Origin: an uncultured Fibrobacteria bacterium
GTDB taxonomy: Bacteria; Fibrobacterota; Fibrobacteria; UBA11236
Direction: 5' to 3'
DNA: 64,000 nt
Assembly (NCBI GenBank): GCA_963716395.1
Contig: OY970309.1
Location: 911,989-975,988 of the forward strand
Position numbers and translations under genes: made by a program. This document shows positions 1,332 to 41,328 of the stretch, piece by piece. The notes below the pieces were generated by a model. It did no database searches, had not been told where the DNA came from, and saw only the letters and a list, made by a program, of their open reading frames with translations. Every line of letters begins with the position of its first letter. Positions within the stretch are counted from its first letter, which is position 1.

Positions 1332-1996
1332 CCTAGTAGCTCCTGGCGGTAAGCCTGAACCTTTGCGGGCGCCGCGCTTTTCGGCTGGCAAATTCCTATC
1401 AACGAACAGGAGCGGCAGCCTTTTTTCCAGATAGCGGGCGGCAACTGTCGCAAACACATCATGTGATCGAAGGCGGTGATGGTTTCCCGGGTGCGGATGC
1501 GTAAGGCCTCATCAAAAACCACTTCGTCTCTTCGGCGGATTCTTCCATAGAAAATCGATCCTTCCGGAATCTCAGCCCCGGTCATCTCCTCCAGGCACAG
1601 GGCTTGGGCGCAAAGTTGAATCCGATCGCAATCCAATTCCTTGGGTTCGCCGCGCTTGAATTCCACCGGACGAATTTTCCAATTTCCGCTTAACCCAAGG
1701 AATGATGCCGTATCCGGCGTATCGCCTATCTTTTCAACCTCCACCACGTCCAAACGTCCGTACAAACACAATTTCAAAGACTGAACACGCACCCCGGAAA
1801 ACTGGCGCAACCCCCGGCGGAATTCCCGATAGCCTTCATCCACCCGTTCATGCAAGGTCCGGCCTTCGGCAGTGCGCTGGTTTTCCTCCCAGACTTGCTC
1901 AAGGTGAATCAACCCGGCCTGCCGCGGGCAGAAGGCCATGTGCTGCAAAGCCGAGATCGGATGCAGATCTTCTTCACGGTGGGCCGTGGTGGTCAC
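1328..1996 (-). CDS. cas4: CRISPR-associated exonuclease Cas4 (RecB-like nuclease with C-terminal Cys cluster)
   Basis: 222 aa; N-terminal ISALQHMAFCPRQAGLIHLEQ motif and C-terminal CRSCSLIGIC Fe-S cysteines typical of Cas4. GTG start overlaps the stop of the upstream dinD-like ORF. Confidence 0.85.
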   Translation of the reverse strand: MTTTAHREEDLHPISALQHMAFCPRQAGLIHLEQVWEENQRTAEGRTLHERVDEGYREFRRGLRQFSGVRVQSLKLCLYGRLDVVEVEKIGDTPDTASFLGLSGNWKIRPVEFKRGEPKELDCDRIQLCAQALCLEEMTGAEIPEGSIFYGRIRRRDEVVFDEALRIRTRETITAFDHMMCLRQLPPAIWKKGCRSCSLIGICQPKSAAPAKVQAYRQELLG

Positions 1997-2832
1997 GGTT
2001 TCGGTTTTGCCAGCTTTCGGGTTTTTGATCCCGGCAAATAGTTCTGTCCAGAAACGACTTTCCGCCCCGTACGGCTTTCCAGAGCTTTGCGGGCCTTACC
2101 GGCTACGGAACCTCCTTCCCTGGCGGCTTTGCGGTTCGGCTCGAAACCCTGAACGTCTCCGGTGCGGGTGATCTCGGTGGTGGCCGCTTCACCAAGCATG
2201 CTGAAGATCAATTCCAAATCGTTCATATGGTCGCGAAGGTTTTCGCGCTTGAGCCCTTTGATTTGCTTGTATTCGGATGGCGTGACTCCGAAGGCCGCTT
2301 TGGAGATTTCGGCGGTCAGGATGGCGTAATCCTTCTCCTCTTGGATTCCCCGGTTTTTCCACTCTCCTGTCAGCTCTTCCCGAATGGCGATGGACCGCAT
2401 GCGCTTTTCGATCCAGTCGTCCGGATAGCCCTTGGCCTTGTACAAAGCCCGGGTGCGCTTGGAGGCTAATTCGGGGTCCTCGATTTCCTGAATGCGCTCA
2501 TATCCCACCTTGGCCAGCCATTTCTTGAAAGGCTCGGCCTTGGGCGAAGGAATGCTCTGGATGATGCGGAAAACGCCTTCGGTGTTGGCACAATTAAGGT
2601 TTTGAAGACCTCCCGGCGTTTGGACGGAAAGGGGGGTGGCAATTTGCCCCCACCCTTGGTTCAGTTCCGGGTCGCGTCGGCGCATATCCTTGACGTATCC
2701 CGCCGGTTTCACTGAGTCGGTCAAGGCCGAAACGACGTCAGCAATGACGAACCACCATTCGCCCTTATGCAGGGTTTTGCGGATTTCTTTGCCCCGGAAC
2801 AGGGCAATGTGGGTGGGGTCCTCCACGTTCAA
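1993..2832 (-). CDS. BRO-N domain / DinD-like (DNA-damage-inducible protein D family) protein embedded in the cas operon
   Basis: N-terminus ([19 protein letters not shown]) resembles BRO-N antirepressor-type DNA-binding domains. The C-terminal half ([33 protein letters not shown]) aligns by eye with E. coli DinD. Likely GTG start at ~2826, preceded by a GGAUGG Shine-Dalgarno. Confidence 0.7.
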
Positions 2833-3977
2833 GCCATCCGCAACAATTTCACGCCGTTTCCGGCATCGGCACTTGATCCGACCGCAGGTAGTGGTTTCCC
2901 GTCGAACGTGACCTCGTAGTCCTCGAATGCCCTGGCAGGCGGCAATTTGCCACCTTCGCCAGCTACGCCGATTTTCCGCTTGGCCACGACACGCTCGAAC
3001 AAGGCATGCGCCGGGGCATTGCCGAGAGCCGTGGCGTGTTCAAATACAAGCAAAGGACGCGTAGACATCAGTCCACGGGCCGCAGATCGGTCATGCTCGA
3101 AAGCGTTAACCAGTGAATCCCAAAAGAGATTCAAGTCCTCTTCGGAAAAGCCGGTTTGATTGGCGAGATGAGCGGAAATGAAACCGTGGGAGCGGTACAA
3201 TCCATATGGAACGGTGAATTTACGGCCCATGGTTCGGTTGTCTCCACCCTGTTTCTCGGCCTCGGCTTCGGTGGCCACGGCCATGCGGGTGATACTGTGT
3301 TCCAGGGCCACGATGGGATCCACCGAGCGGGCGAAGGTCATCTGGATGGGTCCGCGGACTTGACCACAATTAGGGGCCGATTTGAGAGACATAACAGCGC
3401 CAAAGGTCCGGATGTCGTAAAAATGAGAACACATCCAATCGCGCCCTTTACCTGTTTCTTCGGCGGTCGGTTTTCGCGCTTTCACGCCTTTTAAAGAATC
3501 TTCCAGAAATTTCTTGAGATCCTTTCCAGGTTTGGTTTCCTTTATCGCCTGCTTAATCGATTTGACATCGGCATCAGCGGCCACGACTAACCAAAGTTTC
3601 TCCTCGTCCTCGTCAAGGCTCAATCCCTCCGGCAAAATGAAATCTTCTATTTCGGTCTTCAGGTTGTCCGGAATGAGTTTTCTGCCTTCTTCTCCCAAAG
3701 CAATTCCGAGGTCGGTGAATGCGGCATTATGGGCTCTCCCCAAAACCGCTTTTTCCTTGACGTAAATGTCGTACCCACTTTTGGGTTTTTGTCCTTCCGT
3801 TTGCGTCAGTTGGACAAAATTGCGGATTTTTCTTTTGAGACATACATCGGTGACAAGCCCCGTGCCAGTTTCAGCGTCGATGCGCGGAAGATTGCCGGCG
3901 TCGGGATCGCCGTTTGGATTGCCGTCCTGAATGTCGAACAGAAAAATGAAGTCGTAGCGCTTGGTGATATTACTCAT
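2829..3977 (-). CDS. cas7: Cas7c (Csd2) Cascade backbone subunit
   Basis: 382 aa; N-terminus [34 protein letters not shown] is the Csd2/DevR family signature. Confidence 0.9.
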
Positions 3978-3999
3978 AATTTTCTCCTTGAGGTTTTAG

Positions 4000-5709
4000 T
4001 TACTCGGATATTTTGGGCTTGGTGAAAAAGGCCTGGCGTTGGTGGTAATAGCCGACGGCGAAGCGGGCTTGGTCTTCCATGGAAAGGTGGGCCGGCATGT
4101 CTGGAGACAAACCTCCGAAAATCTCCGTCAGCCGATTTTCGTGGACGGCTCGAAAGGCAGGGTTTTCCAATTTGGCCAAGTGGTGATTCTTCAACTTCAA
4201 CAATTGTGGAAAAACACTAATGGGACTGGAACTGGCGGCTCCGTAGAACCGATCGCGGATGGTGGTATTGATGCCGGGTTGCGCGTCTTCTTGGATTTTT
4301 TCCAGGGTGGCGAAAAGCCTTCCAAGACGGTAACCCGAATTAGTATTGGTGAGATCTAGCGACACGGTAATTTCCTCCTGAATGGGATTGTTCTGCTGCC
4401 GATGTTGGCGGTTGATGCAAGCTTTTAGAATGGCGGCTTGCGTACGCCGCACGTCCTGCGTGGCACGGATGCGCCGAATTGCCTGCTGCAAAAGAGTCGC
4501 AGGATAAGGGGTTCCCGTCAAAATGGAAAGCATGACGCTACCCGCCAGATTCGGCGGAACGTTCTCAGTTTTGTTCTGGACTGCGATATCCGAGAGCAGG
4601 AAAAACAGCGCGTAATTCCCCTTGTCGTTCTTGGGCTTGACGATTTCCAAATCCTGAAAATGCTGACGGATTCTGCCGGAAAATTCAGCCACGGTGCCGG
4701 CATGCCAGAAACGCACTGAGACACGGGCGGCATTGGGAGAAAGTCCTAGTACAAAAAAACGGGCTTCGCCATCGGGAATTCCGGTGCCAGTGAATGGGCT
4801 ACGGAGCAAGGTCTCCATCGCCTTAATGCCGCGATCCGGGTCATCCTTTGGTGGAGCATTCCAAAGAAAGGAAAAGACTTCCTCAAACGAAGTCTTCTTT
4901 TCTGACCAAAAAACTGTTGTTGCATCGCCAACTTGGACCTTGTTTTTTGAATCCCTTCCCAGGAGGAGGTTCAGAACCGTGGTGTAGGCAAAGGTTGCCG
5001 ATTCACTTACGGGAGCATTATAGTTTTGCTCCTTCCGGAAAGACCTGAATGCCGGGAGGTTGAACGAAATTAGTGCCGCACCCGAAGACTGAGCGTCTCG
5101 AACCCCTTTAATCGAAGGATGGATACGGGCAGCCGAAGATTTGCATCCTGATATAAGGCAGATTCCCGCACCTTTCGAACCGGGCCTACGGATATGGGTT
5201 GAAAGTGATTCACAAATAGAAGCATCTCTTGCACCATCGATCCTAAAAAGAACATTTAGATTGGAATCCAAGACCTCCTTCCATCTATCCTCATCCTTTT
5301 TGCTTTTCTCAATTTGAGCTACGGGGTTTGAAGCGAGAAACCGTAAAAGAATCTCGCGATCAGGGTTTTCGTCGATATCGGAAGACAATCGACGCAGAAA
5401 ATCAGCATGTCGCTCCGAAATATCTTGCCTACCACGCGGATTGGCACCAAGGGCATATTCAACGTTGCCCCACAACAGATTCGCTTTAACATTCACGCTT
5501 TTTTTTTCCGCCACCGGTACAAGGAAGGATTTAGCCCGTCTTTTCCGTCCTTCCCCTTCCCGCGTGTCCTCTAAAGACACAAATTGCCCATCACGATCAA
5601 TAACGACGACAAACGAAATATCCTGCCACTGAAATCCTTCCGGTGCAATCCCACTTTCCGGATCCGCTGCCTTGCGTTGGTAATATTCGTACAACGCCTG
5701 CAAAATCAT
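4000..5709 (-). CDS. cas8c: Cas8c (Csd1) large subunit
   Basis: ORF 4000..5733. The Csd1-like start MILQALYEYYQRK is at ~5709, overlapping the cas5 stop. Position between cas5 and cas7 is as in type I-C. Confidence 0.85.
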   Translation of the reverse strand: MILQALYEYYQRKAADPESGIAPEGFQWQDISFVVVIDRDGQFVSLEDTREGEGRKRRAKSFLVPVAEKKSVNVKANLLWGNVEYALGANPRGRQDISERHADFLRRLSSDIDENPDREILLRFLASNPVAQIEKSKKDEDRWKEVLDSNLNVLFRIDGARDASICESLSTHIRRPGSKGAGICLISGCKSSAARIHPSIKGVRDAQSSGAALISFNLPAFRSFRKEQNYNAPVSESATFAYTTVLNLLLGRDSKNKVQVGDATTVFWSEKKTSFEEVFSFLWNAPPKDDPDRGIKAMETLLRSPFTGTGIPDGEARFFVLGLSPNAARVSVRFWHAGTVAEFSGRIRQHFQDLEIVKPKNDKGNYALFFLLSDIAVQNKTENVPPNLAGSVMLSILTGTPYPATLLQQAIRRIRATQDVRRTQAAILKACINRQHRQQNNPIQEEITVSLDLTNTNSGYRLGRLFATLEKIQEDAQPGINTTIRDRFYGAASSSPISVFPQLLKLKNHHLAKLENPAFRAVHENRLTEIFGGLSPDMPAHLSMEDQARFAVGYYHQRQAFFTKPKISE

Positions 5710-6530
5710 TTCCGCACTTCCTCGCTGTCCCAAGGCGGTACTTCGATAATCCCTTGCTCGATTTTCGCCCGGAAAAACGCAGGCTGCGGATCGTTTTCAT
5801 TCTGGAAATCCAGATCGAAAAGCATGAAACCCAATTCCCGCGTTTCCGCAATCGGCGGCTTTTCCTTTTGCTCCGAAGCCAATTCGCTTTCGGGAATGAA
5901 ACGGAATGCGCAACTGAACTCACGACAGCCGAGATAGGGCTGGTTGAAGCATTGACCTTTCGCGGCTCGGCGCTCGAACATGGCGTGATACTTCCCGGGA
6001 TTCTCGTCTTTACCGGTTTTGGCCGTTTCGGCGCAATGTGCGGTGAATTCTTTCTCTTCCGGGTCAACCAATGATTCCGGAACCGGATTCAAAACCTTGG
6101 GCCGCATGGAAGGCGGAATGAATTCCATCTCAGCATGTAACCGATAGGCTACGTCGCGTAGGAATAGTCCAGCCCTTTGCTGGCGGGCATCCTCGATGAG
6201 AATTTCAGAACCTGCCCGATCGCTGGCCACGGCGCCCACTTCATTACGCCGCACCGAAATCCAACGAATGGGTTGCAACACTTCGATTTTGCGGACATGC
6301 CAACGTATGGCGGGCTTCCAAAATATGGCGGTGAAAATCGCCCGGGCCGACGAGGGCGTGATCACGTCGTAACTGACGCGTTCCACCTTCATTTCCGGGC
6401 GGGTGAAACAGGCGTAATCGCCTCTTACTTTCAAACAGAACGATTTTCGCGTATGGGTCAAGAAACCTCCTTGGGGAGCGGATTTCACGGGTACACCGTG
6501 CCCTCCCGGCGTTGTGCCACGCTGATGCAA
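5706..6530 (-). CDS. cas5: Cas5c (Cas5d) pre-crRNA-processing Cascade subunit
   Basis: Conserved ...KSFCLKVRGDYACFTRPEMKVERVSYDVITPSSARAIF motif. The ATG at 6530 gives an atypical Gly-rich 23-aa extension, so the true start is probably the in-frame TTG at ~6461 (LTHTRKSFCLKV...). Confidence 0.85.
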   Translation of the reverse strand: MHQRGTTPGGHGVPVKSAPQGGFLTHTRKSFCLKVRGDYACFTRPEMKVERVSYDVITPSSARAIFTAIFWKPAIRWHVRKIEVLQPIRWISVRRNEVGAVASDRAGSEILIEDARQQRAGLFLRDVAYRLHAEMEFIPPSMRPKVLNPVPESLVDPEEKEFTAHCAETAKTGKDENPGKYHAMFERRAAKGQCFNQPYLGCREFSCAFRFIPESELASEQKEKPPIAETRELGFMLFDLDFQNENDPQPAFFRAKIEQGIIEVPPWDSEEVRK

Positions 6531-6547
6531 AGGGTATTATTGAAAAC

Positions 6548-6799
6548 ATGACGACTCTTTCGGTGCAGGTTCCTGAGGACATCTTTTCGGCGTTGCGGCT
6601 TTCTCCCGAGGAAATCGCGCGGGAATTGCCTTTGGCCGCGGCCATATTGTGGTATTCCAAAGGCTTGATATCCCAGGAAAAAGCGGCACACATCGCGGGC
6701 CTGAGTCGCGCGATCTTCCTGAACGAACTGGCCAAGGCTCAAATCCCCGTTTTCCATGTGGATTTGGATGAAGTTCGCCGGGAAGCCCTGAGTGGTTGA
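6548..6799 (+). CDS. UPF0175-family putative antitoxin
   Basis: ~83-aa protein (MTTLSVQVPEDIFSALRLSPEEIARELPLAAAILWYSKGLISQEKAAHIAGLSRAIFLNELAKAQIPV) matching the UPF0175 pattern. It overlaps the downstream DUF3368 gene by 8 nt. Confidence 0.6.
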   Translation: MTTLSVQVPEDIFSALRLSPEEIARELPLAAAILWYSKGLISQEKAAHIAGLSRAIFLNELAKAQIPVFHVDLDEVRREALSG

Positions 6800-7283
6800 G
6801 TCTGTCGTCAACGCTTCTCCCGTAATCCATCTCGGGGAAGCGGGGTATCTTTTCGTATTACGTGATTTGTTCGGCACCATCCTTATTCCAAGGCCGGTCG
6901 TCGATGAAATCCTCGCGAAGCCCGAATCGAAGGACCGTATTTCAAATACTCCATGGATTCGGGTGCTATCGGTGGATCCGCCTGCAGCATCCTTGACCGC
7001 ATGGGATTTGGGACCGGGCGAAACTTCGGTGCTGACGTATGCCTTGGCCCATCCGGGAACCGAAGCCGTATTGGACGATTGGGCTGCCCGCCGTTGCGCC
7101 AAAAGTCTTGGAGTTCCGGTATGCGGAACCCTGGGTGTCATCCTGCGCGCCGCGCGCAAGGGGATTCTCTCCGACCCGGTTTCCGTACTCCACAAAGTGC
7201 GGAATGCCGGCATGTGGCTTTCACAGGATGTCTTCGAGGAGGTGCTCGGCTTGGCTCGGGAAATGTCGAAATTCAGCAAATGA
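6792..7283 (+). CDS. DUF3368 (PIN-like nuclease fold) putative toxin
   Basis: 163 aa; NASPVIHLGEAGYLFVLRDLFGTILIPRPVVDEI... is typical of DUF3368 partners of UPF0175. The 3' end overlaps the cas3 3' end convergently. Confidence 0.6.
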   Translation: MVESVVNASPVIHLGEAGYLFVLRDLFGTILIPRPVVDEILAKPESKDRISNTPWIRVLSVDPPAASLTAWDLGPGETSVLTYALAHPGTEAVLDDWAARRCAKSLGVPVCGTLGVILRAARKGILSDPVSVLHKVRNAGMWLSQDVFEEVLGLAREMSKFSK

Positions 7284-9567
7284 AATCCTCCGGACCATCC
7301 AAGCGCAAACCGAAGGTTTCATCATACAGATTATCCACGCATTGAGCCCATAGACCCATCGCGCCCTCGGGTCCTTTCAGTTCCGCAATACTTCCTTGGT
7401 CTCGGAGTTTTTGCCATACGCGCTCAGGGACGTTAACTAGGCACCGTTGCAGCCTACGCATGCGCTCGCGAGAAGGGCCGGCATAACGCAACTCCTCCAG
7501 GATTTTTCGGCTGGAGTACCGATCCGAATCAGATTGCCACTCATACCACACCACGACACTTCGGTATCCTTGTTCATCAATGAGCCTGTACCATTGCGCC
7601 GCTGAGCGAAATTGAAATCGGCATTCGCCTTCACCTGCATCTTCAAAACCGTAACTTTTGAAATCTTTGCGACCGAAATCATTTACTGCCCGGTAGAAGC
7701 ATTGGAAATATTTCCGGAACGCGTCGGGGGAAAGTAGGCCGGATCGATCCGGCCAAGTCCGTATCACCTCGGAACCGGCCTGTTCCATTTTGAGCAAAAG
7801 ACCGGATGGAGAGGGTTTCGGCGGATTGAAAATCACCACTTCGCCCAACCTCTCCTTCAGCTTTCCTTCCCGGTTGCATCGTCCGGCCGCCTGGGCGATA
7901 CTATCCAGCCCAGCCATGGCCCGGAATACCACGGGAAAATCAATGTCCACCCCCGCTTCCACGAGTTGCGTGCTGATCACACACAGTGGCCTGTCTTGGG
8001 ATAAATCCTCCTTGATGCGCCGAATCACTTTGGAGCGATGCTCCCCGCACATCAGGGCCGAAAGATGAACTGGTGTTTCCGCCGATACCTGCCTGACCGC
8101 TTCCCAAAGCTCGCGGCAATCCTGCCGGCGATTGACGATGCAAAGAACTTGCCGATGTCCCGAAAGCTCACCGGCCAAACTCGGCCAATCAATTTTTTCC
8201 GGCCCTTGAAACCGCAATTGGACCCGCTTCAGGGATACGGCCAGCTCGGCCGGGCTTGTGACGATTTCCCTGACTGAGTCGCAATCGAGCCCCTGGAACC
8301 GGGCTTTTTGCGAGCCGATTTCTCCGAGCAGGGCGGGCTGGGTGGCGGTACATAACACCACGGTACACCCGAAATGCTTGACCAATCCTTTGAGCACCGA
8401 CAAGGTAGGTGCCAAAAATTCGGACGGTAACATCTGGGCTTCGTCCAGGATAATGACGGAATCCACGATATTATGAAGTTTGCGGCACCGGCTGGTGCGC
8501 GAGGCGAAGAGCGACTCGAAAAACTGTACGTTGGTGGTGACCACAACCGGCGCATCCCAATTCTCGGCCGCGAGACGGCCCCCCACGGTTTCCCGATCCA
8601 AATCCACATTACTGTGATGCTCCAGGACGTTCTCCGACCCTAAGACCTCGGAAAAAATCTGGGCCGCTTGCTCGATGATGCTGGTAAAGGGTATAGCCAT
8701 AATGACACGGCGTTTGCCGTATCTCAGAGCATGTTCGAGCGCGAAGGCCAGGGAAGAAAGGGTTTTGCCGCCGCCGGTTGGAACGGTAAGGGAAAAGAAG
8801 CCGGGTTCGAGATCCGCCGCCTTGCGGCAATCCGCCAACACTTCCCGTCTGATTTTGTTGACCAGAAGTTCGAAATTCCCTTTGGCCTTCAATTCGGCAT
8901 CTCTTTCATCTGTTTTGGATCGGAAAAGGACGTGCAATTCCTTCAAGGTGGAAGTAGGACCGCGTTTCTCGGCCTTCTCCGGATCCATAAAGGCTTCGGT
9001 GTCCAGAAAATCCGCGTCCACCAGACTGGAGAAAAGCATGCGTATCCACAGATGAATTTGCTCAGGATCCTGAGGCGGCTTGGATGCCGGTAAAGCGGCT
9101 TCCAAAATTTCTTTGGGAATATCCGCCTTTCGGGTTTCTTCAAGATGGCGGGTTTCATTCAGACGTTCTTCTAATCCCCAGCCTTCCGCCTTGTCTTTGA
9201 ACCAATCGGGCAGTCCCGAATGATGGCCCGCAATCAGGTAGGCTAGAACTCTTCCTATGCCTTTTTGTTTTTGTACGGCGTGAATGGCTCCGGCAGTACT
9301 GTGATCCACCTTGCCGGGAACATTTTCCAGGTGGGCATCTATCCGATACCCTGTTGCCGAGCGGATATAACTCTGAAAATCCGCCTTATACTTTCCCAAG
9401 TCATGCCAAAGTCCGGCCAAATAGCCCCAGTCGTGGGAAGAGAAATTTTGTGCCGCCTCCCCGGAGCGCCTTCCGACCTCTTGCAAATGCCCTTCCAGGG
9501 TATGTTCAATCCATTTGTCGGTGGCAGAGTCTTTCCGCACATGCGCGATATAGCGTTGCATCGACAT
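7273..9567 (-). CDS. cas3: Cas3 HD nuclease / SF2 helicase
   Basis: 764 aa. N-terminal HD motifs (HTLEGHLQEV...HDLGKY...), a Walker A (TVPTGGGKT), DEAQ, and a helicase C-terminal domain. Confidence 0.9.
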   Translation of the reverse strand: MSMQRYIAHVRKDSATDKWIEHTLEGHLQEVGRRSGEAAQNFSSHDWGYLAGLWHDLGKYKADFQSYIRSATGYRIDAHLENVPGKVDHSTAGAIHAVQKQKGIGRVLAYLIAGHHSGLPDWFKDKAEGWGLEERLNETRHLEETRKADIPKEILEAALPASKPPQDPEQIHLWIRMLFSSLVDADFLDTEAFMDPEKAEKRGPTSTLKELHVLFRSKTDERDAELKAKGNFELLVNKIRREVLADCRKAADLEPGFFSLTVPTGGGKTLSSLAFALEHALRYGKRRVIMAIPFTSIIEQAAQIFSEVLGSENVLEHHSNVDLDRETVGGRLAAENWDAPVVVTTNVQFFESLFASRTSRCRKLHNIVDSVIILDEAQMLPSEFLAPTLSVLKGLVKHFGCTVVLCTATQPALLGEIGSQKARFQGLDCDSVREIVTSPAELAVSLKRVQLRFQGPEKIDWPSLAGELSGHRQVLCIVNRRQDCRELWEAVRQVSAETPVHLSALMCGEHRSKVIRRIKEDLSQDRPLCVISTQLVEAGVDIDFPVVFRAMAGLDSIAQAAGRCNREGKLKERLGEVVIFNPPKPSPSGLLLKMEQAGSEVIRTWPDRSGLLSPDAFRKYFQCFYRAVNDFGRKDFKSYGFEDAGEGECRFQFRSAAQWYRLIDEQGYRSVVVWYEWQSDSDRYSSRKILEELRYAGPSRERMRRLQRCLVNVPERVWQKLRDQGSIAELKGPEGAMGLWAQCVDNLYDETFGLRLDGPEDFIC

Positions 9568-9734: not shown

Positions 9735-10685
9735 ATGAAATCCATTTCTCACTTGCATAAGATCCATCGGTTGCTTTCGGAATCCCAAAAATCCGGGATC
9801 ACCCTTCCCACCTTGCAACGTAAATCCGGACTTTCCCGGCCGACGGTGTACCGCGTCTTGAAGAAGTTGAAGGAATTGGGCGCCCCCTTAACTTCACCAC
9901 GCCGGGGGTTTTACGCGTTCGCCTCTGAAAGTGCCTTCGAACTCCCCGGCTTTGCCTGGCTTTCGGAGGGGGAACTCGGAACCTTGCTTGGCCTCATGGC
10001 CTGGCTTGGCCAGCCGGAATCCGAAGCCCTGGAAGAAATCATCGGCCCCTTCCGCAAACGCGTCGAGACCATGGCCTCCCGGCTGAAAATAGATGGGGAA
10101 AAGTTGCAGACCGCCATCGCTCTCTTGCCCATGCACGCCCGCGTCATTCGTCCCGGCATCCTGCGTCAGACTTGTGAAGGGCTTTTAAGCAACCGGAAAT
10201 TGCGCATCCGTTACGGCGATGAAGACGATTTCCTGGATCGCGAAGTTTCGCCTCAGAAACTTGTACGCTACCGCGATAACTGGTACCTGGATGCGTTTTG
10301 TCACGTGCGTCAGGCACTGCGAATTTTTTCTCTTTCCCGAATCCGGCGATTGGAATTGCTGGCGGAGCCGGCCGAATCGGTGCCCCGGGCGGAGCGTGAC
10401 GCTTTTTTCGCCACCTCCTACGGTATCTTCAGCGGTACGTCTCAACATACGGCCATCTTGCGGTTTACTGGTTACGCCGCCCAAGAGACAGAAGCTGAAA
10501 CCTGGCACCCTCTGGAGCAAAAATCCCGCGATCAAGACGCTCTGGTGCTTCGATTTCCCTATGGAGATTCCCGCGAATTGGTACGGGATATTTTGCGCTG
10601 GGGCCCAGAGGTCGAGGTGCTTGGTCCCGTGAAATTAAGGGATCAGGTGGCGGAAATGGCGCGGCAAACGGCCTCGCAATATTAA
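9735..10685 (+). CDS. HTH-WYL-WCX family transcriptional regulator (BrxR/CapW-like), divergent from cas3
   Basis: 316 aa. N-terminal HTH (LPTLQRKSGLSRPTVYRVLKKL), a central WYL motif (VRYRDNWYLDAFCHV), and a C-terminal extension. Confidence 0.8.
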   Translation: MKSISHLHKIHRLLSESQKSGITLPTLQRKSGLSRPTVYRVLKKLKELGAPLTSPRRGFYAFASESAFELPGFAWLSEGELGTLLGLMAWLGQPESEALEEIIGPFRKRVETMASRLKIDGEKLQTAIALLPMHARVIRPGILRQTCEGLLSNRKLRIRYGDEDDFLDREVSPQKLVRYRDNWYLDAFCHVRQALRIFSLSRIRRLELLAEPAESVPRAERDAFFATSYGIFSGTSQHTAILRFTGYAAQETEAETWHPLEQKSRDQDALVLRFPYGDSRELVRDILRWGPEVEVLGPVKLRDQVAEMARQTASQY

Positions 10686-10914: not shown

Positions 10915-11985
10915 CTAGAGTATTTCTACCGGCGATCGCGTCTTTAGCAACTCGATTAATTCCAGCACCCCTTCGCGTGTTAACCATCCCTTCGCATTGG
11001 AGCGCGTCGCCTGCGACAGGCGTTTGACGGCGGCAATTTCCTGGCGGAAAAGGTGTTCGTTGAAACGCGCCAGCGTGAAAAAACTGGAAACGCGGGGATC
11101 GCTTTTTTCCAAGATGGCGTCGGCTTCGGAACGCAAGGCGGCGACTTCGCGGCGCAGGCGCTTGGCATAGGCCTTGAGCGTTGCGATGGGCGTCACGGAG
11201 AGATAGGGGCCAATGGCATTAAGCGGATTGCGCGCCAAAATATCGAAGAGTCCGTGGAGGTTACGGGCTTGATAGGCCGCGCTAAGCTTCTGCATCCACG
11301 CGGTTTTTTCCGCGCGCAATGCCGGGTCGGTTTCCTTATCGGGATGCAAGGCGCGCGCGAGCAGCAAATACAGCCCGCGCATGTCTCCGAGCAGGGATTG
11401 CTCTTGTTCCTCCGCGCGTTGTTTCGCCTTGGTCTTTGCGCCGGTTCCGCGTTTTTGCTGTCGATAGCGACCGGGATGGTCCTCGGGTTCGGGGCCGGGG
11501 CCGGGTTCAAAAAATCCCATAAACTCATCGAAACTCGCGCCGAATTCTTCGGTGCCGGCCCGGATTTCTTCCCCTTCTTCGTCGCTTAGACATGGCAGCA
11601 CAAGAAAATCTTTGCGTAGATCCGAAAGATCCTGATCAAAGTTTTCCTCGAGTTCGAAGATCAACCATTCCACCGCATCGTGGATTTTGGCCGCTTGCCG
11701 GGGTTTCATCCAACCCGCTTTCAATTGGTTCAGCAAGGCGGTGAGGCAGGCCCGTTTCCACCGAACGACGTTTTCCAGCAAGGGGACGAATTCCGCGGCG
11801 AAACGCTCCTGGGCCTGCACTAAAAGCTTTTCATTGCGCGCGGCCTGTTCCCGGGCCTCGGCGACGCCGCGCATCAGCCGGGACAGTTCGCCAAGAACCT
11901 TGGCATGGCCCGCGGCAGGTGCCGAGTTATCCAATTCGAGGGTTGGCCCAATCGGCACCGGCGTTGAGTCTGACTTCGGATTCAT
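10915..11985 (-). CDS. J-domain (DnaJ-like) protein of unknown function
   Basis: 356 aa with an internal J-domain signature LYLLLARALHPDKETDPALRAEKTAWMQKLSAAYQ (HPD motif). The N-terminal half is coiled-coil/acidic with no recognisable domain. Confidence 0.6.
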   Translation of the reverse strand: MNPKSDSTPVPIGPTLELDNSAPAAGHAKVLGELSRLMRGVAEAREQAARNEKLLVQAQERFAAEFVPLLENVVRWKRACLTALLNQLKAGWMKPRQAAKIHDAVEWLIFELEENFDQDLSDLRKDFLVLPCLSDEEGEEIRAGTEEFGASFDEFMGFFEPGPGPEPEDHPGRYRQQKRGTGAKTKAKQRAEEQEQSLLGDMRGLYLLLARALHPDKETDPALRAEKTAWMQKLSAAYQARNLHGLFDILARNPLNAIGPYLSVTPIATLKAYAKRLRREVAALRSEADAILEKSDPRVSSFFTLARFNEHLFRQEIAAVKRLSQATRSNAKGWLTREGVLELIELLKTRSPVEIL

Positions 11986-40428: not shown

Positions 40429-41328
40429 CTACCAGTTCCCCGAGGCGCCGCCGCCGCCGAAGGAGCCGCCACCGCCGCCGAAGCCCCCGCCGCCCCCGAA
40501 ACCGCCGCCGCCGAAGCCCCCGCCGCCGAAGCCCCCGCCGCCAAAACCACCCGGATAAAAGCCGCCGCCCCCGAACATTCCCCCGCCGCCCATCAGCACG
40601 AACACAAAGGCGCATAAACCCAGCACCACGCTGAGTATCAGCGAACCGAGCACGAACCAGATGGCGAATCCGAGCAGAATGCCGCCCAAGGCGCCGCCGA
40701 AAATGCGGCCGAACAACATGCGCAACACCACGATTCCGGCGATAGCCAAAATCAACAAAGTTTGCAGGGGAAAGCGACCCGGACCGGAAGCGGGGGGTGT
40801 TTTCGGCGGCGGCAGAGGTTCTCCCGAAACCACCTTGCCCACGGCCTGCACCACGGCCTGAATGCCGCCGTAGAAATCGCCCTGCTTGAATTGCGGGGCC
40901 GCAATTTCGTCGATGATGCGGTTGCACAAGGCATCGGGCAAGGCGCCTTCGAGGCCGTAGCCGACTTCGAGACGCATGGCATGATCGTTTTTGGCGATGA
41001 GGAAAAGCACGCCATCGTCGACTTTTTTCCGGCCCAATTTCCAGGCCTCGACCACGCGCAGCGAATATTGCTCAATGGCCTCGGGCTTGGTCGTCGGCAC
41101 GATGAGCACCGCGATTTGGGCGCCCTTGCTTTTTTCCAGGGCGGCCAATTGCGCTTCCAGCGTGCCGATTTGATCGGCGGACAGGGTGCCGGTCTCATCG
41201 GTAACCCGTGCGCTTAGCGGAGGGATGGGTTGCAGGTCGATGGCCCGCACCGGTGTCGCCACCAGGCCCAGCAATCCGAGCGCGCCGACGCAGGCCAGCG
41301 TCACGCGCCGGTTACGCCGGTTAATCAT
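40429..41328 (-). CDS. TPM-domain protein (YgcG-like) with C-terminal TM segment and Gly/Phe-rich tail
   Basis: Signal peptide; VLFLIAKNDHAMRLEVGYGLEGALPD TPM core; TM segment; (GGGGF)n tail. Confidence 0.7.
   Translation of the reverse strand: MINRRNRRVTLACVGALGLLGLVATPVRAIDLQPIPPLSARVTDETGTLSADQIGTLEAQLAALEKSKGAQIAVLIVPTTKPEAIEQYSLRVVEAWKLGRKKVDDGVLFLIAKNDHAMRLEVGYGLEGALPDALCNRIIDEIAAPQFKQGDFYGGIQAVVQAVGKVVSGEPLPPPKTPPASGPGRFPLQTLLILAIAGIVVLRMLFGRIFGGALGGILLGFAIWFVLGSLILSVVLGLCAFVFVLMGGGGMFGGGGFYPGGFGGGGFGGGGFGGGGFGGGGGFGGGGGSFGGGGASGNW
40445..40555. repeat. Imperfect ~15-bp tandem DNA repeat encoding the (GGGGF)n tail
   Basis: Reiterated gccgccgccgaagcccccgcc units. Confidence 0.6.

Follow-up and report, generated by a model that had tools for sequence, protein, structure and literature searches.

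What is a Bro-N/DinD-like gene doing in a type I-C CRISPR-Cas operon, set between cas7 and cas4, and does it serve that operon or travel in it? Here, we describe this open reading frame (ORF; positions 1993-2832, minus strand) and its relatives, starting from a 64,000-nucleotide stretch of DNA from an uncultured Fibrobacteria bacterium (contig OY970309.1), referred to below as the window. The host operon has the type I-C order cas3-cas5d-cas8c(Csd1)-cas7(Csd2)-cas4-cas1-cas2 on one strand (minus), with cas3 at 7273-9567 (matching genes annotated Cas3_HD/DEAD/Cas3-like_C), cas5 at 5706-6530 and cas8c at 4000-5733 (tblastn matches to genes of related loci annotated Cas_Cas5d and Cas_Csd1, respectively), cas7 at 2829-3977 (Pfam Cas_Cas7, E 5e-99; TIGR02589, 370 bits), cas4 at 1328-1996 (Pfam Cas_Cas4, E 3e-19; TIGR00372, 102 bits), cas1 at 297-1457 (61-80% identity to Cas_Cas1-annotated genes in loci L163-L171) and cas2 at 5-295 (ORF list and related-locus comparison). 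Besides cas7 and cas4, the operon genes share 44-86% identity with annotated Cas3, Cas5d, Csd1, Cas1 and Cas2 (loci L001-L171). Between cas3 and cas5, on the opposite (plus) strand, lie a UPF0175 antitoxin-like gene (6512-6799) and a DUF3368/PIN-like gene (6792-7283), both recognised by Pfam and together making up the PADLOC cassette PDC-S70 (E 3e-46), a second embedded candidate (6512-7283) within the operon. An HTH-WYL-WCX regulator gene (9735-10685, plus strand; Pfam WYL 1.5e-16, WCX 3.4e-14; PADLOC 'WYL, CAS associated_signaling') is divergent from cas3 and of the type usually linked to cas genes. Rfam and tandem-repeat scans of the window detected neither a CRISPR array nor any other RNA; the array presumably lies beyond its left edge, past cas2.

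The ORF encodes 279 amino acids from a TTG at 2832, or 277 from the GTG at 2826 that is the start of public protein P0001. At the cas7/ORF junction (2826-2839, minus strand), GGATGG (2839-2834) stands 7 nt 5' of the GTG, the cas7 TGA occupies 2831-2829, and a start at the TTG makes the ORF overlap that stop. At the ORF/cas4 junction, GTGA (1993-1996, minus strand), the TGA of the ORF (1995-1993) overlaps the cas4 GTG (1996-1994). The sequence details given in the first-pass annotation of this DNA are all correct, and its view of the gene as operonic and translationally coupled is borne out. From 1900 to 2900, the minus strand holds no promoter-like or terminator-like site. With more than 8000 homologues and a Ka/Ks of 0.04-0.10 (synonymous sites near saturation), the ORF is no chance reading frame, and it is under strong purifying selection.

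Pfam Bro-N (PF02498) matches amino acids 17-108 of the 279-residue form (2509-2784, minus strand) with E 5.8e-13 and 49.7 bits (gathering threshold 25.6; profile positions 2-92 of 96), confirming the proposed N-terminal domain, which has an APSES/KilA-N/Dachshund-like DNA-binding fold; Bro-N is the only domain that Pfam detects, and no Ant or KilA-C domain is present. The protein matches the PADLOC model PDLC04920 of PDC-S13 over its full length (amino acids 7-272, profile positions 5-273 of 286; E 1e-111, 370.9 bits) as well as PHROG 15286 (E 1.6e-83), and a profile search aimed at wider sequence diversity returned the same core subfamily. PDC-S13 is a single-gene phage defence candidate, flagged previously in PADLOC for nesting in other defence operons and belonging to a set of 145 PDCs that are explicitly candidates only (Payne, Hughes, Fineran & Jackson, bioRxiv 10.1101/2024.01.29.577857). 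These PDCs were defined on BREX, DISARM or RM-I hosts, and here the same arrangement, a single gene embedded on the strand of a multi-gene defence system, is seen between cas7 and cas4 of a CRISPR-Cas host. The 'defence' role of PDC-S13 is itself a candidate role, assigned through guilt by association. The word 'CRISPR' occurs 0 times in the text of that preprint, our literature search found PDC-S13 mentioned nowhere and Bro-N or DinD linked to cas operons nowhere, and the main text of the CRISPRicity preprint of Shmakov et al. makes no mention of the family.

The C-terminal helical domain (2068-2475, minus strand), common with E. coli DinD, includes a near-invariant block; behind the domain comes a variable basic tail. 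The first-pass annotation had quoted short peptide strings for the Bro-N-type N-terminus and for the DinD-like C-terminal half; both occur in the ORF, and the quoted DinD string was confirmed on the real E. coli gene. Homology of the C-domains is supported by the match of E. coli DinD to PDLC04920, the subfamily model of the ORF, with E 2.2e-16 over its C-domain; DinD itself carries Bro-N (E 1.5e-7). Membership in DinD proper is not supported, as the NCBIfam DinD equivalog (NF008573) reaches 21.3 bits against a cut-off of 242 (E 1.4e-4, amino acids 150-253, C-domain only). Pairwise BLASTP between the ORF and DinD gives E 0.029, and hhalign against the single DinD sequence a probability of 2.4%. 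DinD falls in PDLC04919 (E 2.4e-121), which carries the same PDC-S13 label; by these profile matches it is a sister subfamily of PDLC04920, and the resemblance, as judged by sequence comparison, is real but distant. DinD (PcsA) has the same two domains, Bro-N and a helical C-domain, and a KGLK...L.DHM..EL block common to it and the ORF family; it differs in belonging to a separate subfamily (25% identity over 110 amino acids) and in being a stand-alone, LexA-regulated chromosomal gene, whereas the gene in the window is operon-embedded without a LexA box. In E. coli, DinD is SOS-induced and acts as an inhibitor of RecA filaments, which it reportedly disassembles (Uranga et al. 2011, J Biol Chem). 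A HEPN RNase reading of R194-x5-H200, in the most conserved block of the ORF, was rejected: the H is replaced by N in divergent members, the R is not retained in DinD, HEPN matches number zero and the Rx4-6H motif does not hold across the family. Similarity to RhuM was likewise set aside (BLASTP E 3.3).

An AF2 model built from a 141-sequence alignment has a pLDDT of 85 (87-98 in the C-terminal domain), compared with a poor 65.6 for an earlier model from 54 sequences. Its sole structural match is Deinococcus DdrC, over the N-domain and C-domain together, and the predicted fold is of the two-domain DdrC type, with a Dachshund-like N-domain and a helical C-domain. A profile search of PDB sequences yielded no homologue of solved structure, DdrC included. 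DdrC is dimeric and acts as a sensor that traps nicks and double-strand ends. It binds nick pairs and double-strand breaks (PMC11347143), and it has been described as Deinococcus-specific. Since the likeness to DdrC of Deinococcus radiodurans is structural, with 12-14% identity and no sequence signal, any biochemical inference rests on the predicted model; moreover, DdrC is not embedded in defence operons, unlike the ORF. From this model we infer that the ORF protein is probably a dimeric DNA-binding protein with a Bro-N head and a helical clasp, DdrC-like in build and homologous to DinD. The predicted match would provide a first structural handle on DinD-like proteins and suggests that the 'Deinococcus-specific' DdrC has widespread relatives.

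Beyond the window, the family is a single-gene cassette that is 65-88% identical across many bacterial phyla, CPR and archaea, and forms 656 clusters at 50% identity (E<=1e-30). Immediate neighbours of 80 genomic copies span 173 Pfam families, most commonly ResIII, Eco57I, N6_Mtase and TaqI_C (RM/helicase) together with Cas4, and include many housekeeping genes. Homologues adjoin HsdM, type IIG and SNF2/PLD genes, and recurrent neighbours comprise Cas genes and the serial embedders Fic (SoFic/PDC-S04), RhuM (PDC-S05), YhcG (PDC-S02) and AAA_14-DUF4143 (PDC-S01). Cas operons account for 16 of 160 homologous loci, and for 10 of the 105 whose flanks reach 1 kb or more on either side. Some 90% of the close homologues are found away from cas loci. 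They are just as conserved in sequence, and the family has no CRISPR-specific subfamily. The CRISPR-embedded copies are always co-directional and tightly packed, and occupy several positions (I-C cas7-X-cas4, I-C cas4-X-cas1, X-cas3, X-cas6-cas3 and, in an archaeon, V-A cas12a-X-cas4, where X is the ORF). They stem from at least six independent insertions (about seven), lie in separate clades of the gene tree and are interleaved there with RM-embedded copies, to which they are 83-87% identical in DNA, the similarity ending some 40-120 bp beyond the ORF. The same bare ORF has been embedded recurrently and co-directionally in RM-type and CRISPR-cas operons.

Within the I-C lineage of the window the picture is one of long residence. 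The first-pass annotation had accepted that its reading would fail if the gene were not conserved at this position in related loci; it is found at cas7-cas4 in ten of them (L001, L002, L003, L083, L094, L163, L166, L168, L170 and L171), reaching as far as 55% Cas4 identity. In L082, which is truncated on the upstream side, it immediately precedes cas4. The junctions equivalent to cas7/ORF in ten related loci are 0-12 nt apart or overlapping; the 4-nt ORF/cas4 overlap recurs in L082, and the two genes abut in L166, L168, L170 and L171. An apparent Bro-N-Cas4 fusion in L094 was discarded, as translation reveals an in-frame TAG between the genes. Ten Cas4 relatives were examined, of which six have Bro-N at cas7-cas4, two have ParE or remnants and two are empty; loci lacking Bro-N are nested among the positive ones, and sister I-C loci carry at this junction a ParDE toxin-antitoxin pair or nothing, with cas4-1-2 intact. 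The Bro-N protein co-diverges with Cas4 and Cas1 (Mantel r 0.67, p 2e-4). Two loci, L002 and L163, have had their effector modules swapped (Cas7 26-44% and Cas3 32% identity), and Bro-N-cas4-cas1-cas2 is kept at 78-86%. The ORF is ancestral in this lineage, within which it has several times been lost or given way to toxin-antitoxin cargo. Other cargo is likewise found next to cas4 (Fic in L138, ParE in L164), and the effector/adaptation seam itself looks like an attractor of cargo.

We favour, with a probability of about 0.58, the explanation that the ORF is an autonomous, horizontally mobile PDC-S13 cassette nested in the I-C operon as a second protective layer independent of CRISPR; a hitch-hiking second defence gene is more likely than a dedicated Cas protein. 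The cassette sits where the effector module (cas3-5-8c-7) meets the adaptation module (cas4-1-2). There the promoterless ORF would be expressed off the cas transcript, its translation coupled to that of cas7 on the upstream side and of cas4 on the downstream side, and embedding would give it co-expression and co-transfer with the host system. Its protein may act on broken DNA or on recombination intermediates created by DNA-cutting defences: by binding the cleaved DNA of an invader it could keep that DNA from being repaired through recombination or replicated, or it could signal damage. It would work without the Cas proteins and they without it, and the outcome would be a second, CRISPR-independent layer of protection. 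Certain observations sit uneasily with this explanation. The I-C association is old and stable, beyond what casual insertion requires, and of the roughly seven independent CRISPR insertions, four bring the ORF into contact with cas4. Retention of Bro-N-cas4-cas1-cas2 through the effector swap in L002 and L163 would also fit a link to adaptation, and a lone gene with neither enzymatic motif nor partner is an unusual defence effector.

The strongest alternative, though an unlikely one, makes the ORF a genuine accessory to adaptation modules that contain Cas4, taken up by I-C and V-A systems in separate events. A binder of DNA ends or nicks would capture or protect fragments, or hold off RecA/RecBCD, and pass prespacers to Cas4-Cas1-Cas2. 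Conserved position and co-evolution with cas genes within a lineage, one mark of a CRISPR-linked accessory, are present here in six of the ten Cas4 relatives and in the Mantel correlation with Cas4 and Cas1, and the gene stays with cas4-cas1-cas2 through effector exchange. It adjoins cas4 in four independent events (I-C cas7-X-cas4, I-C cas4-X-cas1, cas4-X-cas1 in L054 and V-A cas12a-X-cas4), shares 4-nt start/stop overlaps with cas4 or cas1, and is hosted by CRISPR types that are all DNA-targeting and Cas4-bearing; the predicted DdrC-like architecture would suit break binding. However, the other mark of a CRISPR accessory in the approach of Shmakov et al. (CRISPRicity), that a majority of members lie by cas genes or arrays, is lacking, with some 90% of equally conserved members having no cas neighbour, and this, with ParDE or an empty junction in sister loci whose cas4-1-2 is intact, takes away the CRISPR-specific role raised in the first-pass annotation. 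CRISPR copies interleave with nearly identical RM copies, Fic and ParE are also found beside cas4, and with about seven independent events the cas4 adjacency is not distinguishable from chance (an estimate, binomial P about 0.1). A bolder form of the idea strikes us as doubtful: that the Bro-N/DinD-like protein, recruited independently by two I-C branches and by an archaeal V-A system, senses DNA ends or nicks as a partner of Cas4-containing adaptation modules, coupling breakage or RecA control to spacer capture, and does likewise for RM systems that generate breaks. Were it true, DinD, DdrC and PDC-S13 would belong together in a single superfamily of proteins that bind DNA lesions, one that has so far gone unrecognised.

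We give slightly less credence still to a purely selfish or addictive passenger that plays no part in defence, which would persist through expression and a ride from the cas operon, or by penalising loss of the locus in the manner of embedded toxin-antitoxin modules. The slot is the one that ParDE fills in sister loci, a UPF0175/PIN pair lies in the same operon in the window, the bare ORF moves over all prokaryotic phyla with many housekeeping neighbours, and the 'genomic sink' argument (Payne et al., bioRxiv 10.1101/2024.01.29.577857) points the same way. Yet the passenger would be a single gene with no antitoxin-like partner, purifying selection this extreme, kept up across deep divergence (Ka/Ks 0.04-0.10), implies a host-selected function, and DinD and DdrC, to which it is related, are proteins of the host's own DNA metabolism.

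An SOS-linked transcriptional regulator of the cas operon or its adaptation genes, likewise raised at first pass, is very unlikely. Bro-N domains can bind DNA sequence-specifically, as in ICP1 Odn and PLE CapR/NixI, and the name-giving relative is an SOS gene in E. coli. But near-identical copies sit in unrelated operons (RM, CRISPR and housekeeping), which leaves them no operator particular to one locus to recognise, and the 83-87% DNA identity across RM and CRISPR contexts likewise implies no locus-specific DNA-binding specificity and speaks against a cas regulator. Upstream of 145 homologues, four LexA consensus patterns gave 0-4 matches, not above downstream controls, in a crude scan given that boxes differ between phyla; the copy in the window has no promoter of its own, and a WYL regulator already stands beside cas3. 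A recently domesticated phage antirepressor, or a prophage or mobile-element remnant, is the least credible proposal: some homologues are labelled 'phage antirepressor' in the sources and PHROG Ant families weakly match the Bro-N part (E 1e-7 to 1e-3), but the family occurs in 1 locus of 2.9 million IMG/VR contigs, in 4 of 50,697 INPHARED phage records (all short unannotated fragments) and in 15 of 72,556 PLSDB plasmids, and the ORF has neither an Ant or KilA-C domain nor flanking phage genes, integrase or repeats, its junctions being 0-4 nt.

If the nested-cassette explanation that we favour is true, cas operons would host the same guild of embedded genes as RM, BREX and DISARM systems (PDC-S13, PDC-S70, PDC-S02, Fic and ParDE), and guilt-by-embedding would extend to CRISPR. 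The I-C effector/adaptation seam would then be a cargo hot spot, which bears on cas-locus annotation and on the choice of candidates. With its stable presence and co-divergence across a large I-C lineage, the Bro-N gene offers a concrete, testable example of layered defence, or else of a helper in adaptation.

Among known systems, phage Ant/BRO antirepressors and the Bro-N-T5orf172 nucleases (ICP1 Odn, PLE CapR/NixI) have an N-terminal Bro-N in common with the ORF, which differs from them in lacking Ant, KilA-C and T5orf172, in its DinD-type C-domain and in belonging to a family essentially absent from phages. PrrC (in the EcoprrI type I RM system), BrxU (BREX) and CreTA (type I-B cas) are foreign modules nested co-directionally, co-regulated and co-transferred like the ORF, and are the best precedents for a 'backup' or 'safeguard' logic; each has an identified toxic activity (anticodon nuclease, GmrSD-type nuclease and RNA toxin, respectively) and demonstrated cross-talk with its host, whereas for the ORF neither an enzymatic motif nor cross-talk is known. 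Closest of all is PADLOC PDC-S13, which the ORF resembles as a single gene with a full-length HMM match, co-directional within a multi-gene defence operon and travelling with Fic/SoFic, RhuM (PDC-S05), YhcG (PDC-S02), PDC-S01 and PDC-S70. It departs from PDC-S13 as published in that the host is type I-C (elsewhere V-A) and the insertion is ancestral, co-diverging with its Cas4-Cas1 lineage.

The gene lying between cas7 and cas4 in this type I-C operon (ORF X, window 1993-2832, minus strand) is a routine member of PDC-S13, a catalogued candidate family for phage defense, and is best read as an autonomous cassette of that family, sharing both transcription and transfer with the cas operon. On the minus strand, the operon takes up the leftmost 9.6 kb, with cas3 (7273-9567), cas5 (5706-6530), cas8c (4000-5733), cas7 (2829-3977; Csd2, TIGR02589, 370 bits), ORF X, cas4 (1328-1996; TIGR00372), cas1 (297-1457) and cas2 (5-295). 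Base-by-base reading places the cas7 stop, TGA, at 2831-2829 and gives ORF X two alternative starts, TTG at 2832 (279 aa) and GTG at 2826 (277 aa, the public-database form P0001), the latter with GGATGG 7 nt to its 5' side; the ORF X stop, TGA (1995-1993), overlaps the cas4 GTG start as GTGA. No promoter-like or terminator-like sites were found around ORF X on the window minus strand, and the first-pass annotation, which had described these same junctions, is therefore right in all details. Divergent from cas3 is an HTH-WYL-WCX regulator gene (9735-10685, plus strand). At a separate locus (L006, 2572-3546), a WYL gene 36% identical to that of the window lies directly 5' of a Bro-N homologue, on a contig that ends before cas genes could show. 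Elsewhere in the window, a 356-aa ORF (10915-11985, minus strand) carries an 'ALHPDK' motif in its C-terminal part, reminiscent of a J-domain, and a GC-rich imperfect tandem repeat within an ORF (40446-40542; 15/18/33-nt periods, GCC-GCC-GAA-like units) is probably a low-complexity coding repeat.

Profile searches bear out the Bro-N N-terminus proposed for ORF X (Pfam Bro-N, aa 17-108, E 5.8e-13). Full-length matches were to PHROG 15286 (function not assigned) and to PADLOC PDC-S13 (model PDLC04920, E 1e-111), one of 145 'phage defence candidates' predicted by 'guilt-by-embedding' in a text that makes no mention of 'CRISPR' (Payne, Hughes, Fineran & Jackson, bioRxiv 10.1101/2024.01.29.577857). 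The resemblance to E. coli DinD, also proposed at first pass, is real. DinD likewise has a Bro-N domain, falls within PDC-S13 as well, under subfamily PDLC04919 (E 2.4e-121), and cross-matches the ORF X subfamily model over the C-domain (E 2.2e-16), but aligned pairwise the two proteins score low (25% identity, E 0.029; hhalign probability 2.4%), and only the C-half of ORF X is matched by the NCBIfam DinD equivalog, at 21 bits, far under its 242-bit cut-off. 'DinD-like' thus describes a genuine but remote kinship. A HEPN Rx5H motif mimicked by a RENLRDH block was rejected because the block's motif is not kept across the family, and no enzymatic motif in ORF X holds up under scrutiny.

ORF X has more than 8000 close homologues, nearly all of them stand-alone proteins of ~275 aa, and its family forms 656 clusters (50% identity, E<=1e-30). 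Identities of 65-88% span Myxococcota, Fibrobacterota, Verrucomicrobiota, Nitrospirota, Planctomycetota, CPR groups, Methanosarcinales and Woesearchaeota, and purifying selection is strong (Ka/Ks 0.04-0.10, synonymous sites near saturation). Immediate neighbours of 80 genomic copies represent 173 Pfam families, most commonly the RM/helicase families ResIII, Eco57I, N6_Mtase and TaqI_C, together with Cas4. Clustering of every gene lying up to 7 kb from 160 copies gave as recurrent neighbours Cas1 (10 loci), Cas4 and Fic/DOC (SoFic/PDC-S04; 9 each), Cas5 (7), Cas3, Cas8c, Cas2, Cas7, AAA_14-DUF4143 (PDC-S01) and YhcG/DUF1016 (PDC-S02; 6 each), SNF2-PLD helicases and RhuM (PDC-S05; 5 each), and type IIG RM and HsdM (4 each). 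Within one subclade, CRISPR- and RM-embedded copies (pairs L028/L105, L113/L103 and L138/L052) share 83-87% DNA identity that ends within ~40-120 bp of the ORF ends. What moves is therefore the ORF alone, as a bare cassette, and no transposase gene is visible beside these copies.

Homologues lie within cas operons at 16 of the 160 loci, on the cas strand in every case, with gaps to cas genes of mostly 0-45 nt or 4-nt overlaps and a few intergenic distances of ~50-150 nt. Five have the window arrangement, cas7-X-cas4 (L001, L002, L003, L083, L094), and are grouped with L082, in which the gene abuts cas4 and the upstream flank is cut; six have cas4-X-cas1 (L028, L054, L089, L120, L132, L138). 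The remainder lie 5' of cas3 (L012), 5' of cas6-cas3 (L113), after cas7 and a HEAT gene (L148), and, in a Methanosarcinales archaeon, where effector and cas4 meet in a type V-A operon, between a 1361-aa cas12a and cas4-cas1-cas2 (L072, 145-6995). In the gene tree, the first arrangement forms a single clade with one non-CRISPR copy nested within, the second falls mostly in one clade with RM-embedded copies interleaved, and L054, L148, L113, L012 and L072 are placed elsewhere, which indicates at least six independent CRISPR insertions. L028 (1418-5144) has two tandem PDC-S13 genes between cas4 and cas1, DinD-proper (2312-3175; PDLC04919, E 3e-117) followed by a gene of the window-type subfamily (3262-4116). 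A literature search found no paper that connects cas operons with Bro-N, DinD or PDC-S13, and the embedding of PDC-S13 in cas operons of type V-A, of type I-C (at two junctions) and of other type I loci appears to be undescribed so far.

Ten relatives of the window Cas4 (55-80% identity) were then compared. The check suggested at first pass, whether related I-C loci have an ORF at this junction, finds Bro-N genes at cas7-cas4 in L163, L166, L168, L170 and L171; a sixth locus, truncated at a contig end, probably has one too. The junction holds ParDE or its remnants in L164 and L165 and is empty, as in canonical operons, in L167 and L169. In the tree built from Cas4+Cas1, loci with ParDE and loci with an empty junction each have Bro-N-positive loci as sisters, and Bro-N distances track those of Cas4+Cas1 (Mantel r 0.67, p 2e-4). 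The Bro-N gene is therefore ancestral and co-inherited in this I-C lineage, with several losses or replacements, a co-divergence that also appears undescribed. L002 and L163 have a swapped effector module (Cas7 26-44%, Cas3 32% identity) and keep Bro-N-cas4-cas1-cas2 at 78-86%.

Other cargo is found in these operons. A second embedded candidate, the PDC-S70 pair of UPF0175 (95 aa) and DUF3368/PIN-like (163 aa), lies between cas3 and cas5 of the window (6512-7283, plus strand); its ends overlap both cas genes on the opposite strand and it splits cas3 from the remaining operon, so that expression of cas5-cas2 requires either read-through or a promoter inside the operon. Similarly, L138 (7083-11869) has Fic (SoFic/PDC-S04) between cas7 and cas4, L164 (1042-7983) has ParDE at that junction and YhcG/DUF1016 (PDC-S02) between cas5 and cas8c, L165 (4699-6660) has remnants of a ParDE pair, L166 (1-6000) has an AIPR gene 5' of cas5, and in L171 (1-3074) an ISL3 transposase splits cas8c. 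The seam beside cas4 thus serves generally as a landing site for the embedded-gene guild known from RM operons.

As an autonomous cassette, ORF X would have as its substrate the DNA that nuclease-based defenses break, and may serve as a second defense layer independent of its host system. A true link to Cas4 and adaptation, which we consider less likely, draws support from the old, stable association in this I-C lineage, the recurrent adjacency to cas4 and the persistence of ORF X with the adaptation module. Only about seven independent events are available, and cas4 adjacency among them is not separable from chance (our estimate, binomial P about 0.1). Regulator, SOS and phage-antirepressor roles, raised at first pass, are unsupported given the lack of a promoter-like site, the close DNA identity of CRISPR and RM copies, and the near absence of the family from viral contigs (one locus) and from phage genomes, of which 4 in 50,697 carry it, each a short fragment; it is nearly missing from plasmids too (15 of 72,556).

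The ORF X protein is probably a DNA-binding protein, predicted to recognize lesions or recombination intermediates. A first AF2 model was poor (pLDDT 65.6); with a 141-sequence alignment, the model of window 1996-2826 (minus strand; m403ad13d8366) reached pLDDT 85 overall and 87-98 in the C-domain. By two methods, D. radiodurans DdrC is the one PDB entry that matches it significantly, and it does so across both domains (Foldseek E 1e-5, probability 1.00; next best E 1.0), and weaker N-domain matches to the CpGV Orf22 N-domain, Mbp1/APSES and Dachshund are consistent with Bro-N. Dimeric DdrC detects and traps nick pairs or double-strand ends and has, according to its authors, no informative structural relatives (PMC11347143); it has been published as unique to Deinococcus. 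The DdrC-like fold predicted for ORF X appears undescribed so far. ORF X and E. coli DinD share a common architecture and a homologous C-domain and differ in subfamily. DdrC and the ORF X model are alike in their two-domain fold with no sequence similarity detected, so that this likeness is one of structure and concerns a predicted model. The DdrC match suggests that DdrC, DinD and PDC-S13 form a structural superfamily of DNA-damage-associated DNA binders.
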